64,000 bases of DNA from Escherichia coli. Its GTDB lineage: Bacteria > Pseudomonadota > Gammaproteobacteria > Enterobacterales > Enterobacteriaceae. Every line of letters begins with the position of its first letter. The first letter of the stretch is position 1. The position numbers were made by a program. Positions 18,001 to 27,000 of this stretch are shown here, piece after piece. The stretch lies in the NCBI RefSeq assembly GCF_045037415.1, contig NZ_CP173438.1, one strand, 5' to 3'.

Positions 18001-21000
18001 AACGGCATGACTGTCGGTTGCGAAAAGCTGGTCATTGCGACCGGTGGACTGTCAATGCCGGGGCTGGGCGCATCGCCGTTTGGTTATAAGATTGCCGAAC
18101 AATTCGGCCTCAACGTGCTGCCGACCCGTGCGGGTCTGGTGCCATTCACTCTGCATAAACCGTTGCTTGAAGAGTTACAGGTGCTGGCGGGCGTGGCTGT
18201 GCCTTCCGTGATTACCGCTGAAAACGGTACCGTTTTCCGTGAGAACTTACTCTTCACCCACCGCGGCTTATCTGGACCGGCGGTGTTGCAGATTTCCAGC
18301 TACTGGCAACCGGGTGAATTTGTCAGCATCAATCTGCTACCGGATGTGGACCTCGAAACCTTCCTGAATGAGCAGCGTAATGCACATCCGAATCAAAGCC
18401 TGAAAAACACGCTGGCGGTTCATCTGCCGAAGCGGTTGGTTGAACGGTTACAACAACTCGGGCAAATCCCGGATGTCTCGCTAAAACAGCTCAACGTGCG
18501 TGACCAACAGACACTGATTAGCACATTGACTGACTGGCGCGTACAACCCAACGGCACTGAAGGCTATCGCACTGCCGAAGTGACGCTCGGCGGCGTGGAC
18601 ACCAACGAACTCTCTTCACGGACGATGGAAGCGCGCAAAGTGCCTGGGCTGTACTTCATCGGCGAAGTGATGGACGTCACCGGCTGGCTGGGGGGCTATA
18701 ACTTCCAGTGGGCGTGGTCGAGTGCATGGGCTTGTGCGCAGGATTTGGTGGCAGAATAAGAAGCAAAATGCGCTCTCGATACCAGAGGGATTAACCTGAA
18801 TAAAACCAGATAAGGCGCTCAACGCCTTATCTGAAGCCTTTTTTATTATTTTTTCGCTGAACCCGCTTCTAATATAGAAACGATGGAAAACAGTGTAAAA
18901 CAAACTGCACCTAAGCCAACCAGAACTCGCGAAGGAATAAAGTAAGCCATATCGGTTTGCGCAATTTCAGCCAGGAACGCAGCAAGGAACAGACAAAACA
19001 GACAGGTAAATACCGGAATCATGGGTATTCTGTTGGCTAACGAACAGGTGCGTCGCCATACCAGCGCTAACAACCACACTTTGGAGAAAATACTGTAGCA
19101 GATCATCCCCAGGCAAATGAGAATAATGCCGGGGGCCAGGCGGGCGCTTGCATCTGAACTGATTAATACGTAGATACCAAAAATAATGGTAAGTGAGCCA
19201 AGCAAAATAACCCAATAGCACCACAGCCAATGTTCTTTCACTGAGAACGTATTCCGCGTTTGATGGACAATAGTGGCGACAAGGCCAATAAGACAAGCGC
19301 AAATTGCCGTTAACCCCATTAGTACGTGACCTGCAACATAATGTGGTGTGATATCTGCACTACGTAACAGTATGACTGACCAAATGAAACCAAAGAGAGT
19401 AAGCAGAACGGGAACGGCAATTAAACAATTACCGATTGTTGAAGAATAGGCCTGCAATGGCGTACCGTCACTCTTACTGCCCGAGGCGTTTTTGGGGATC
19501 AACAGAAAATGTCCGGAAGATGCCGCTACGGTTGATACACAAGCGGCAATCATGCCAACGCCGAAAATAACATGACCGGCGACAAATTCATCTGCCATCA
19601 CATTATTGCTTGCCAACAGTGACCATCCCCAAATCATAGTTGTAGCAGAACCGGCATAACCAATAACAGGAAATAACTTGTTGTAGAATTTATTCATGCC
19701 GTGAGTTAACTGAGATATAATAATAAATGCGGTAGTGAACAATGCCAGACATATCGCAGAAAGAGAAATCAGAACATGCCCTGCAACGAAATATTCACTT
19801 TGCCCAGAACCGGTTAATACAAACTCACCTAATGCGATGCATATTATACCCATCAGTAAAGGAATTAATTTAAACAACCATCCGATATATATATTCATTT
19901 TAAACCCCATATATATTTTCTGCTACACTTCGAAAAACATATGATTCGTCTTTTCAGTTAGTTAAATATGTCTATAAGATGCCATCAATTAAAAAAAGTA
20001 ACTTCACTATAATCGGATTTAGCGTTATGGGGATCAACTTTTAGCGGTGAGTTAATGCTATTAAATAAATATTTATCCTAAGATAAACTCTGAATTAATA
20101 TCTTTATCTTATTTTGTTGTTTTAAATGAATCTTTTAGGGACTATTTTATTAAACCCACGAGCCTTTATCATCTATCATTCTTTTCAGAATAAATTATTT
20201 TATATTCGGTATTTATTCGCACATCAGACGATAATAACGCTATGTGATAGTCATCAGGTTTCCCTGTTACGGAAACCTGTGCAACAGAATCTGTGAACCT
20301 GTACAGAATATTTTTGGAAAAAACACCAGCGAACGGAAGAACATCGCGATGTATCACAAGTTGATGGCAATCAAATAGACAACATGAATATAACTGTTAG
20401 TATTTAATTGATTTCACTTATGAGTATGCGTGTTTCATTTACGGCCAGGAATGCTGATGATGACAACATTACTACCCGTTTTCACTAAGCCTTCCCCATT
20501 GGCGCTCAATGCTCTGTGCGCTGGTCGTATTTGCCATTTCCTTCTTATCCCGGATGGAAGAATCCGCTGAACGTCGTTCGGTGGCAGTTGTAACACGTGT
20601 CGATTGCTTACAGGGATTATGGCGGGTCGATTATGGATAAGAGTAAGCGCCATCTGGCGTGGTGGGGTGTCGGGGCACTGGCGGTGGCTGCCGTCGTGGC
20701 GTGGTGGCTGTTGCGCCCGGCGGGTGTGCCGGAAGGCTTTGCTGTCAGCAATGGGCGCATTGAAGCGACGGAAGTGGATATCGCCAGCAAAATTGCCGGG
20801 CGTATCGACACCATTCTGGTGAAAGAAGGCCAGTTTGTTCGAGAAGGTGAAGTGCTGGCGAAGATGGATACTCGCGTGTTGCAGGAACAGCGACTGGAAG
20901 CCATCGCGCAAATCAAAGAAGCACAAAGTGCCGTTGCCGCCGCGCAGGCTTTGCTGGAGCAACGCCAAAGCGAAACTCGTGCCGCACAGTCGCTGGTTAA

Positions 21001-24000: not shown

Positions 24001-27000
24001 ATCGCGCTGGGGATGCTGAACTTTTTCCTGCTCTGCGCCCTGTCGGTGTTTGTGTTTGGCGTACCGCATAAAGGCAGTTTCCTGACGCTCACCCTGGCGG
24101 CGCTGCTGTATATCATCATCGCCACCGGAATGGGGCTGCTGATCTCCACCTTTATGAAAAGCCAGATTGCCGCCATTTTCGGTACGGCAATTATCACGTT
24201 GATCCCGGCGACACAGTTTTCCGGGATGATCGATCCGGTAGCTTCGCTGGAAGGTCCAGGACGTTGGATCGGCGAGGTTTACCCGACCAGTCATTTTCTG
24301 ACTATCGCCCGCGGAACGTTCTCGAAAGCGCTGGATCTGACTGATTTGTGGCAACTTTTTATCCCGTTGCTGATAGCCATACCGCTGGTGATGGGCTTAA
24401 GCATCCTGCTGCTGAAAAAACAGGAGGGATGATGCGCCATTTACGTAATATTTTTAATCTGGGTATCAAAGAGTTGCGCAGTCTGCTCGGTGATAAAGCG
24501 ATGCTGACGCTGATTGTCTTCTCGTTTACGGTGTCGGTGTATTCGTCAGCGACCGTTACGCCAGGATCGTTGAACCTCGCGCCGATCGCCATTGCCGATA
24601 TGGATCAATCGCAGTTATCGAACCGGATCGTTAACAGCTTCTATCGCCCGTGGTTTTTGCCACCGGAGATGATCACCGCCGATGAGATGGATGCCGGGCT
24701 GGACGCCGGACGTTATACCTTCGCGATAAATATTCCGCCTAATTTTCAGCGTGATGTCCTCGCCGGACGCCAGCCGGATATTCAGGTGAACGTTGATGCC
24801 ACGCGCATGAGCCAGGCATTTACCGGCAATGGGTATATCCAGAATATTATCAACGGTGAAGTGAACAGCTTTGTCGCGCGCTACCGTGATAACAGCGAAC
24901 CGTTGGTATCGCTGGAAACACGGATGCGCTTTAACCCGAACCTTGATCCCGCGTGGTTTGGCGGGGTGATGGCGATCATCAACAACATTACCATGCTGGC
25001 GATTGTATTGACCGGATCGGCGCTGATCCGCGAGCGTGAACACGGCACGGTGGAACACTTACTGGTGATGCCGATAACGCCGTTTGAGATCATGATGGCA
25101 AAGGTCTGGTCGATGGGGCTGGTGGTGCTGGTGGTGTCGGGATTATCGCTGGTGCTGATGGTGAAAGGCGTGCTGGGCGTACCGATAGAAGGCTCGATCC
25201 CGCTGTTTATGCTGGGCGTGGCGCTCAGTCTGTTTGCCACCACGTCAATCGGCATTTTTATGGGGACGATAGCGCGTTCAATGCCGCAACTGGGGCTGCT
25301 GGTGATTCTGGTGCTGCTGCCGCTGCAAATGCTTTCCGGTGGTTCCACGCCGCGCGAAAGTATGCCGCAGATGGTGCAGGACATTATGCTGACCATGCCG
25401 ACGACACACTTTGTCAGCCTCGCGCAGGCCATCCTCTATCGTGGTGCCGGATTCGAAATCGTCTGGCCGCAGTTCCTGACGCTGATAGCGATTGGCGGCG
25501 CGTTTTTTACCATTGCGCTGCTGCGATTCAGGAAGACGATTGGGACAATGGCGTAAATACAGTGCCCGATACGCAAGCTTATCGGGCCTACGCGATGGTG
25601 CAATTTATTGAATTCTAGTGGTTTTGTAGGCCGGATAAGGCGTCACGCCGCATCCGGCGAGGATTTATTTTACCGACCGATGCCCCTCATTCATCATCAG
25701 GATTTTGCTATACACATCTTCCTCGACGGCGTTTTTTGCTGATGCCATCACTCGTGCCAGATTCGCCTCGTTGTGATTATTCACATACGCTTTGCCGACT
25801 GCGGTGATAAACGCTTTGCGCAGATCGCTGGCGATATTCACTTTAGCGACGCGATAATTAACGAAACTGCGTAATATCTCCGGGGCGATACCGGAGCCGC
25901 CGTGGATAACCAGCGGCACCGGGCTGACTTCGGCAATGCGCTTCAGCAGGGGGATATCGATCCGCGGTATATCGTCCAGGCCATGAACGTTACCAATAGA
26001 AACTGCCAGCATGTCGCAACCGGTGCGTTCGACAAAGGTCTTCACCTTTTCCGGTTCCGTTTTGCAATCGGCCTCGCTGACGTGATCATCTTCTTTGCCG
26101 AGAATCGCCCCCAGCTCCGCTTCAACCGGCACGCCATAAGATTTACAGAAATCGACAGCTTCCTGGGTGAAAGCGATATTCTCTTCAAAAGAGAATGCGG
26201 CACCGTCAATCATGACCGAGGTAAAGCCCGCGCGCACCGCCTGTTTAACATCCTCCTGGGTTTTCCCGTGATCCAGATGAAGACTGACCGGAACATCCAT
26301 TTTATCGGCGTGACGTTTCACGATTTCATATATGTAATCGTATCCCGACAGTTGTGCATTGGTGGGCGCAATCTGAATGAAGTTGGGTAATCCCGAACGC
26401 TCAATAGCGTTTAAAATTGAAATTGTCGTCTCCAGATTGGTGGTATTAAACGCGCCCGCTAATACCCGTTTTTCCTGAATGCGGTCGAGCAGTATCCGTC
26501 CATTCACTAATGGCATATTGAAAACCTCATTTTTTAATATCAGTTAATTATTCAGCTTCACCGAAGCGGTCGCGAAATAAGGCGGTGAGAGTCTGTATGG
26601 CCTCGTTTTCATCATCACCGTCGCAGCGTATTTCCACCGTTTTTCCGCCTTTTATTCCGGCGCGCATAATATTCATCATACTGGTGGCATTAATATCATT
26701 ACCCTCATAGTGCAGCGTCACTTTACAGCTACATTTTTTGGCGGCTTTCGCCAGACAGGCCGCCGGACGTGCATGCAGGCCAGTACTGTTTCTGACCTCC
26801 ACGGTTTTAGTCAACATAGTGCTCCTCCCGATGATGTAATGGCATCACGCCTTCTTGCTGTAATTTCAACTGATACCAGCTTTTCCATTTGTGCTGATAA
26901 CGCTGTAATTGATGATATCTTGCCCGATTCGGTAACAAACGTTGGGCTATGGTAACTTGCGGCGGCGGAATATCCGGTGCCGCGGTTAATAAGGCTCCGA

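Follow-up and report, generated by a model that had tools for sequence, protein, structure and literature searches.

The rbbA locus of Escherichia coli as a core operon for a probable envelope-spanning ABC-2 efflux pump with a proposed yhiY/Rho leader

This report concerns the rbbA locus in a stretch of 64,000 nucleotides from the Escherichia coli contig NZ_CP173438.1 (assembly GCF_045037415.1), which we refer to as the window and whose first letter is position 1. The region is an ordinary core operon of E. coli, yhiY-yhiI-rbbA-yhhJ, already known and nearly universal in the species. We propose, with a probability that we would put at roughly 0.8, that this operon encodes an efflux pump of the ABC-2 type (ABC, ATP-binding cassette) spanning the cell envelope and preceded by a leader in which yhiY and Rho take part. 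The three structural genes of the proposed pump are as follows.

yhiI: positions 20633-21700, plus strand, 355 aa, a membrane-anchored periplasmic adaptor (membrane fusion protein, MFP), from the open reading frame (ORF) table and direct reading
rbbA: positions 21697-24432, plus strand, 911 aa, a tandem ABC ATPase with two nucleotide-binding domains (NBD1-NBD2) fused to an ABC-2 type permease
yhhJ: positions 24432-25556, plus strand, 374 aa, the partner ABC-2 permease, with the RefSeq start at 24432

The case for a transporter rests in the first place on RbbA and YhhJ themselves. RbbA belongs to the NCBIfam equivalog NF033858: the match spans residues 12-910 and scores 1597.8 bits, where the cutoff is 1050. 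Pfam places two ABC_tran domains and ABC2_membrane_3 on RbbA and ABC2_membrane_3 on YhhJ, and the families ABC2_membrane_3, ABC2_membrane and ABC2_membrane_2 all match both proteins. Residues 530-911 of RbbA align with YhhJ at 27% identity (E=1e-26), making the two paralogous permeases, and NBD1 and NBD2 are 37% identical to each other. By hydropathy there are six helices in each permease half (6+6), with a periplasmic loop of ~140 residues between the first and second transmembrane (TM) helices in RbbA and YhhJ alike. Since RbbA and YhhJ together supply two NBDs and two transmembrane domains (TMDs), they amount to a complete ABC transporter, presumably assembled with a 1:1 stoichiometry. An AlphaFold model of RbbA, computed from a 79-sequence alignment (pLDDT 86, pTM 0.75), divides the chain into the following predicted segments, given in residue numbers.

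13-250: NBD1
275-515: NBD2
517-532: disordered linker
540-556: interfacial helix
558-578: TM1
586-706: periplasmic alpha/beta domain
714-841: TM2-TM5
854-876: short helices
881-905: TM6

Sequence searches of the PDB returned no solved structure of RbbA, YhhJ or YhiI themselves. Among solved structures of other proteins, the best fold match to the RbbA model is the type-V half-transporter ABCH-9C (Foldseek E=7e-31). Superposition of the tandem NBDs on DppD, a fused transporter ATPase from M. tuberculosis, gives a TM-score of 0.79. With a six-TM ABC-2 domain occurring twice per transporter and two NBDs, the arrangement is that of a type-V (ABC-2) exporter. The Pfam matches of the RbbA and YhhJ membrane domains are confined to the ABC2_membrane families, with no FtsX or MacB_PCD match, which argues against a MacB-type (type VII) transporter.

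YhiI supplies the second element of the argument. It matches HlyD_3, HlyD_D23 and Biotin_lipoyl_2 in Pfam, and the YbhG-like NCBIfam model PRK03598 at E=1.5e-46, yet below the cutoff of that model. Its AlphaFold model (pLDDT 89) has a TM helix at residues 3-26, a lipoyl domain, a hairpin formed by helices 81-144 and 150-211 (~63 residues each, ~95 Å long in the model) and a beta-barrel, and is devoid of a membrane-proximal domain. The closest structural matches are EmrA of EmrAB-TolC (8ZAL, E=3e-22) and then MacA (E~1e-18). The combination of lipoyl domain, alpha-hairpin and beta-barrel in a protein encoded together with a transporter is that of a tripartite-pump adaptor.

The third element is gene context. 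A large word-indexed protein search returned E. coli and Shigella only, and the wider diversity considered here comes from a representative library and a genome scan with one genome per species. The scan gave at least 80 loci spanning Escherichia, Citrobacter, Proteus, Providencia, Pseudomonas, Nitrosomonas, Rhizobium, Brucella, Geomonas, Verrucomicrobiaceae and Phycisphaerales; Salmonella, Klebsiella and Enterobacter are not among the loci listed, an absence that is not interpretable. Among the matches listed, the order MFP-RbbA-YhhJ is kept in ~80 species of Proteobacteria, Verrucomicrobia and Planctomycetes wherever the contig permits, 58 of 80 loci show a 4-nt overlap between the MFP and RbbA genes, and the spacing between the RbbA and YhhJ genes lies between -4 and +3 nt in 70 of 81, the last two counts being based on heuristic start calls. 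Three distant homologs (33-47% identity) are likewise flanked on one side by an MFP gene and on the other by a gene for an ABC-2 permease, with an OEP gene adjoining in one case (L005). Of the 67 loci with enough upstream DNA, 24 have as their next gene upstream, in the same orientation, one for an outer-membrane efflux subunit of the NodT family (TIGR01845, 398 bits). We regard this linkage as the strongest evidence that the family serves as the inner-membrane engine of a tripartite pump.

The motifs of the two NBDs point to an asymmetry between the ATP sites. NBD1 has the Walker A motif GPDGVGKS, the signature LSGGM and the Walker B motif ILDEP, with Tyr208 at the position of the H-loop His; NBD2 has GSNGCGKS, ILDEP and His466, with the signature LPLGI rather than LSGGQ. 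Walker A and B and the catalytic Glu are thus present in both domains. Because each ATP site is built from the Walker motifs and H-loop of one NBD and the signature of its partner, these substitutions fall together, giving one doubly degenerate site (NBD1 H-loop Tyr208 with NBD2 LPLGI) and one consensus site (Walker A/B and His of NBD2 with LSGGM of NBD1). The pattern holds across the family. Among 13 full-length homologs (32-58% identity), 12 have a residue other than His at the H-loop position and none has LSGGQ as its NBD2 signature, which reads LPLGx in the family; across the alignment of 79 sequences Y208, L408, P409 and G411 are conserved at 90% or more, and S149, G151, M152 and H466 never vary. 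The same degenerate/consensus pattern is seen in YbhF-like tandem-NBD proteins. These motifs suggest an intramolecular NBD1:NBD2 dimer that would have a single catalytic site.

The three structural genes are intact and co-directional on the plus strand, as seen in the ORF table and by direct reading of the four junctions, and the GC content is ~0.35 in the spacer upstream and 0.52-0.59 over the operon. The first-pass annotation of this DNA, made from the sequence alone, had named the genes yhiI, rbbA and yhhJ, and had described a three-gene operon with a 4-bp overlap between yhiI and rbbA and an ATGA overlap between rbbA and yhhJ. The names agree with the NF033858, HlyD/MFP and ABC2_membrane_3 matches given above, and at the first junction (gcaATGAtg) the stop codon of yhiI and the start codon of rbbA do share the four nucleotides ATGA at 21697-21700. 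The second junction calls for a correction. It reads GGATGATGCGC and holds two candidate ATG codons, at 24429 and 24432. An ATGA is present there, but to count it as the overlap one has to start yhhJ at the first ATG, which is not conserved, since the corresponding sequence is GTGATG in Citrobacter and CTGATG in a Pseudomonas, leaving only the second ATG in common. The second ATG overlaps the rbbA TGA by 1 nt (TGATG), and the Shine-Dalgarno sequence AGGAGG of yhhJ, at 24422-24427, is better spaced for it. In view of its conservation and of this spacing, the ATG at 24432 is most likely the start of yhhJ, with an overlap of 1 nt. The three genes are tightly coupled as described, but a fourth gene, yhiY, which had been overlooked, opens the transcription unit.

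A few further observations concern the coding region. Within 24416-24434, the conserved C-terminal Lys-Gln-Glu codons of RbbA (AAA CAG GAG) double as the Shine-Dalgarno sequence of yhhJ (AGGAG), so that the family-wide 'KKQE' C-terminus may be partly constrained at the level of nucleotides. A small number of public proteins of 1272-1286 aa span the entire RbbA query at 97-100% identity and carry an extra ABC-2 membrane family; judging from their length, which equals that of RbbA plus YhhJ, they look like RbbA-YhhJ fusions, presumably arising from frameshifts or sequencing errors at the TGATG junction. A 201-aa antisense ORF at 20435-21040 and other antisense ORFs within the operon were set aside as by-products of high GC content.

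The leader upstream of yhiI contains three features of interest.

Promoter: positions 20376-20403, plus strand, sigma-70-type, TAGACA and TAGTAT separated by 16 nt, with an extended -10 TG, upstream of yhiY
yhiY: positions 20457-20570, plus strand, a small protein or upstream ORF of 37 aa, MMTTLLPVFTKPSPLALNALCAGRICHFLLIPDGRIR, as annotated by RefSeq in an identical strain
C-rich, G-poor stretch: positions 20460-20500, plus strand, inside yhiY, a candidate Rho-loading (rut) site

The promoter is the only promoter-like site on the plus strand within 19800-25800. Its K-12 counterpart (TAGACA-16-TACTAT) is listed as a constitutive promoter of yhiI-rbbA-yhhJ (PMC3946193), and the distance from promoter to yhiY is longer by ~96 bp in K-12. 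yhiY matches the Pfam family PF23514 (YhiY) with 96 bits and is located 62 nt upstream of yhiI. It has been validated by start-codon ribosome profiling, which places initiation at the middle one of three AUGs (10.1101/511675). An RNA 3' end was found less than 200 nt downstream of yhiY, and expression of a yhiI fusion rises more than 2-fold in the rho R66S mutant (10.1101/2020.07.18.207399). A scan of 19000-26600 against Rfam at E<=1 returned only a sub-threshold naRNA4 match and no riboswitch or known leader RNA; a 2015 'riboswitch entropy' paper that mentions rbbA/yhhJ/yhiI concerns a distant window and is irrelevant here.

Comparison with other genera suggests what selection may be acting on in this leader. 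Escherichia, Citrobacter and Pseudocitrobacter share a conserved 5' untranslated region (UTR), yhiY start codon and run of seven codons at the beginning of the ORF (MMTTLLP), and wherever the ORF is full-length in these three genera its stop lies 59-63 nt ahead of yhiI; yhiY is therefore an upstream ORF conserved in position, the translation of which is known from the literature cited above. The remainder of the peptide varies: Citrobacter uses another frame although the nucleotides are conserved, and the Kluyvera ORF has four codons. When window positions 20417-20570 are compared with the homologous loci L008-L014, the 5' UTR and the first seven codons hardly vary among Escherichia, Citrobacter, Pseudocitrobacter and Kluyvera. 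An almost invariant 5' UTR and start combined with a drifting peptide suggests selection on the act or position of translation and on the RNA, rather than on the peptide. The stretch 20460-20500 is the sole part of the leader in which C greatly exceeds G (12 C against 2 G in 30 nt), and by composition it is a candidate rut site. The conserved start and position of yhiY, taken together with this stretch, would fit a leader ORF whose translation controls the access of Rho to the RNA.

Based on these considerations, we propose the following scenario. In the inner membrane, RbbA (NBD1-NBD2-TMD) and YhhJ (TMD), one chain each, would make up a full type-V (ABC-2) exporter, in which ATP is probably hydrolyzed mainly at the consensus site formed by Walker A/B and His of NBD2 and LSGGM of NBD1, the other site being degenerate. 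YhiI, anchored by its N-terminal helix, might assemble into an EmrA-like periplasmic tube, the ~95 Å hairpins of which would reach an outer-membrane channel. In many other bacteria this channel is a dedicated protein of the NodT type; in E. coli it is presumably TolC. The substrate would thereby cross the entire envelope on its way out. Translation of the three subunits is expected to be coupled by their overlapping stop and start codons. Transcription would start from the constitutive sigma-70 promoter and would probably be throttled by Rho-dependent premature termination, modulated by translation of yhiY, perhaps through masking of the rut site by translating ribosomes. One can carry the scenario a step further and imagine yhiY as a translation-sensing leader: ribosomes translating yhiY efficiently would mask the C-rich Rho-loading site and permit read-through into yhiI-rbbA-yhhJ, turning the pump on in a specific translational or metabolic state. 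The 'ribosome' link of RbbA would then be one of regulation by the ribosome, not of an effect upon it, and the pump might export a lipidic or toxic metabolite made by the cell itself instead of a drug. We consider this extended version possible but doubtful.

The efflux-like architecture noticed in the first-pass annotation is upheld by the Pfam assignments, the AlphaFold models and the synteny, and its remark that the physiological substrate is unclear also stands. A number of observations weigh against the pump and leader model as we propose it. No substrate or phenotype of the pump was found in the literature searched, and overexpression of yhiHJ (the genes covered being unstated in the source) raised anthocyanin export only 0.16-0.57-fold (PMC11026601). 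The E. coli operon contains no outer-membrane-factor gene, according to the ORF table and the RefSeq annotation; it is for want of such a dedicated channel gene that TolC is the presumed partner, a pairing suggested by analogy with MacAB and EmrAB and with the discussion of YbhGFSR in PMC7190983. Folding of the yhiY-yhiI leader RNA revealed no significant structure (z = -1.1), and a stable attenuator hairpin is not supported. Mass spectrometry detects the YhiY peptide at ~1000-3000 copies per cell (PMC12529367); it accumulates as a protein and hence may have a role beyond that of a leader. Finally, a soluble form of RbbA truncated of its TM part stimulates in vitro translation 1.3-2.1-fold and reportedly binds the ribosomal E site, as described in PMC12096078 and, through that paper, in its reference 58; some activity related to the ribosome is therefore conceivable. 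With respect to function, in Salmonella the expression of the operon correlated with ciprofloxacin heteroresistance, a weak association. To an FlhDC peak from systematic evolution of ligands by exponential enrichment (SELEX), a co-deletion in a paraquat-evolved strain and a single-nucleotide polymorphism from a genome-wide association study of microcin C resistance we attach no functional weight, since they are mere associations.

The translation effects of truncated RbbA lead to the question of whether RbbA is chiefly a ribosome-bound elongation factor, acting at the E site as an ATPase that ejects deacyl-tRNA, with an incidental or regulatory tie to transporter genes. The first-pass annotation spoke of a protein described as ribosome-associated. 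The name stands in the databases, NCBIfam and RefSeq both retaining 'ribosome-associated', and together with the underlying biochemistry it goes back to Xu et al. 2006, as cited in PMC12096078 (reference 58). In a reconstituted system, 0.5-1 uM of the truncated protein increased the yield of some difficult peptides by the above factor and competed with EttA and Uup; other in vitro translations were inhibited by it (PMC12096078). We do not dispute that the isolated NBD tandem has an effect in vitro. The support is nonetheless weaker than the name implies. The ribosome experiments employed a form without the membrane domain, chosen on account of the instability of the full-length protein (PMC12096078), and irregularities in images led in June 2025 to the retraction (PMC12169533) of the 2011 PLoS One paper that had provided in vivo evidence, linking RbbA to YhjD, respiration and the 30S subunit. 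Database names and later papers still lean on the 'ribosome-associated' description despite this retraction. The full protein is predicted to have six TM helices, and RbbA-mCherry is spread over the membrane (PMC6788730). Nor does RbbA resemble an ABC-F factor: it has a TM domain, the PtIM/ABC_tran_Xtn linker was not found (no ABC_tran_Xtn match even at E<=10, the inter-NBD linker being only ~25 residues, 250-275), and its NBD fold compares with EttA at TM-scores of 0.35-0.59, against the 0.79 obtained with DppD. The retention of rbbA between MFP and permease genes in the ~80 species counted above, often with an outer-membrane channel gene in addition, also speaks for transport. We thus judge it unlikely that RbbA is primarily a ribosome factor.

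Two further alternatives accept the complex as a membrane machine and differ in what it does. The pump may be real and its cargo a lipid or lipid-linked envelope component, making it the counterpart of the ABCA/ABCH/ABCG lipid exporters with delivery via the adaptor to or across the outer membrane. The solved structures nearest to RbbA in NBD sequence are indeed the lipid transporters ABCA3, ABCA4, ABCA1 and ABCA7, the best fold match, insect ABCH-9C, is ceramide-bound, a large extracytoplasmic domain such as the one separating TM1 from TM2 is characteristic of the ABCA/ABC-2 type, and no drug phenotype is reported for RbbA in the literature searched. Similarity in the NBDs and in the general type-V fold does not define a substrate, however; no lipid-pathway signal comes from the neighbouring genes, and the paralogous YbhGFSR reportedly alters sensitivity to tetracycline, cefoperazone and chloramphenicol (PMC7190983). 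We find this alternative rather improbable, if somewhat less so than a primary role on the ribosome. The complex might instead be a mechanotransducing ABC machine that transports nothing, such as FtsEX or LolCDE, with ATP driving a periplasmic partner. Such a role could accommodate the sizeable periplasmic domains of the two permease halves, the degeneracy of one ATP site and the lack of a substrate in the literature searched. Yet FtsEX, LolCDE and MacB share the FtsX/type-VII fold, and the Pfam matches of RbbA and YhhJ are to ABC2_membrane families only; YhiI is a canonical channel-forming adaptor of the EmrA/MacA kind. Together with the outer-membrane channel gene linked in 24 of 67 species, such an adaptor favours a conduit over a mechanotransducer, and of all the readings considered here we hold this one to be the least likely. 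An efflux pump spanning the envelope remains the reading that we prefer.

Outside the operon, both flanks vary from strain to strain, while the operon itself is stable. Out of 5426 complete E. coli genomes, 5413 contain a match to a 6-kb operon query, in every case chromosomal and 95-100% identical. This result, together with the gene order kept in other species, bears on the comparison of operon integrity across strains that had been put forward in the first-pass annotation and agrees with its description of the locus as conserved rather than novel, and the strain differences at the flanks confirm the two variable junctions that it had noted. The left neighbours of the operon are pitA, yhiN and yhiM, and nikR lies beyond the right island. 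The features at the right flank are as follows.

REP/BIME-type palindromic elements (repetitive extragenic palindrome, bacterial interspersed mosaic element): positions 25564-25673, no strand assigned, immediately 3' of yhhJ, with terminator-like hairpins at 25564-25587 and 25646-25659
Right island: positions 25665-31265, minus strand, between yhhJ and nikR, replacing K-12 rhsB-yhhH-yhhI

On the left, a 0.5-kb spacer (window 19911-20400, 33-37% GC) takes the place of K-12 yhiJ/yhiL; in K-12 these two genes lie between yhiM and the operon, and rhsB-yhhH-yhhI(ISEc1) lies 3' of yhhJ. This AT-rich spacer is present in 1128 of the 5426 complete genomes, E2348/69 included, and no annotated features were found under its matches among those listed. 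The right island encodes a GntR regulator, phosphotransferase system (PTS) components IIA/IIB/IIC of the galactitol type, an FGGY kinase, an HPr-like protein and a class II aldolase, and occurs at >=80% coverage in 1635 of the 5426 genomes. In O157 strains a HicAB pair is found at one flank of the operon. Alignments to other E. coli genomes break at the yhhJ stop (25556) or after the palindromes at 25643, so that the REP-type repeats appear to mark the right recombination junction; the naRNA4 (REP-derived) match in Rfam, at 25629-25673, is weak and below threshold. The REP/BIME elements likely represent both the 3' end of the transcript and a recombination-prone junction. Two observations on strain variation may be added. 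yhiM (window 18846-19898, minus strand) is only 80% identical to its K-12 counterpart in nucleotides and 91% in protein, against ~96-97% for the adjacent operon; at the left junction it gives the impression of either an introgressed segment or a long-standing allelic lineage. Strain AZ 186 (NZ_CP184097.1), otherwise 100% identical, has an IS1 insertion somewhere inside the 6-kb region.

The locus is not novel, and what this study adds is a corrected yhhJ start, the yhiY/Rho leader, the asymmetry of the ATP sites throughout the family, the linkage to an outer-membrane-factor gene in other phyla and a weakened ribosome claim. By every test of sequence, structure and context that we ran, the gene named 'ribosome-associated ATPase' appears to encode the motor of an efflux pump, and the value of saying so is mainly one of bookkeeping. 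A pump conserved over many phyla is a reasonable, if not urgent, target for functional work, for which the putative one-active-site design of the ATPase, conserved in the family, and the yhiY/Rho leader offer concrete experimental handles; there is nothing unusual in the copy carried by this strain.

Lastly, we consider the operon in relation to the systems closest to it. The K-12 operon yhiI-rbbA-yhhJ (b3487-b3485; rbbA was formerly yhiH) is the same operon at 96-97% nucleotide identity, with the same gene order, overlaps, promoter hexamers and yhiY. It differs in its yhiJ/yhiL and rhsB-yhhH-yhhI flanks and in the ~96 bp of additional spacer between promoter and yhiY, and the N-terminus of RbbA reads MMH here and MTH in K-12. 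A paralogous system is YbhGFSR, the CecR-regulated ABC-2 efflux system of E. coli, which likewise comprises an MFP, a tandem-NBD ATPase and two ABC-2 permease halves. YbhF-like tandem-NBD proteins are 37-43% identical to residues 1-530 of RbbA, and distant homologs carry the HH_YBHG hairpin family. YbhGFSR consists of four genes, whereas the RbbA system has three, the ATPase being fused to one permease half; unlike YbhGFSR, the RbbA operon in E. coli has the upstream ORF yhiY and no adjacent TetR regulator. Drug phenotypes are reported for YbhFSR (PMC7190983) and none for RbbA.

MacAB-TolC and EmrAB-TolC share with YhiI the architecture of their adaptors and, as we picture it, the logic of an inner-membrane pump joined by a hexameric adaptor to an outer-membrane channel. 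YhiI resembles EmrA in being without a membrane-proximal domain. The engines differ, MacB being a type-VII (FtsX-fold) ABC transporter and EmrB a member of the major facilitator superfamily (MFS), whereas RbbA/YhhJ is of the type-V ABC-2 class. The ABC-F factors EttA, Uup, YbiT and YheS have two ABC domains per chain, as RbbA does, and the in vitro translation effects of truncated RbbA recall them; RbbA differs from them in its 6-TM permease domain, the missing PtIM/ABC_tran_Xtn linker, its one degenerate ATP site and its obligate transporter gene context. For the leader, the closest parallel is found in Rho attenuators of the mdtU-mdtJI type, in which, as with yhiY, a transporter operon is immediately preceded by a small ORF that is translated, with an RNA 3' end less than 200 nt downstream of this ORF and higher expression in a rho mutant (10.1101/2020.07.18.207399). 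In contrast to the mdtU type, attenuation by yhiY is putative and comes with no known inducing signal or stalling motif, and the YhiY peptide is stable and detectable.

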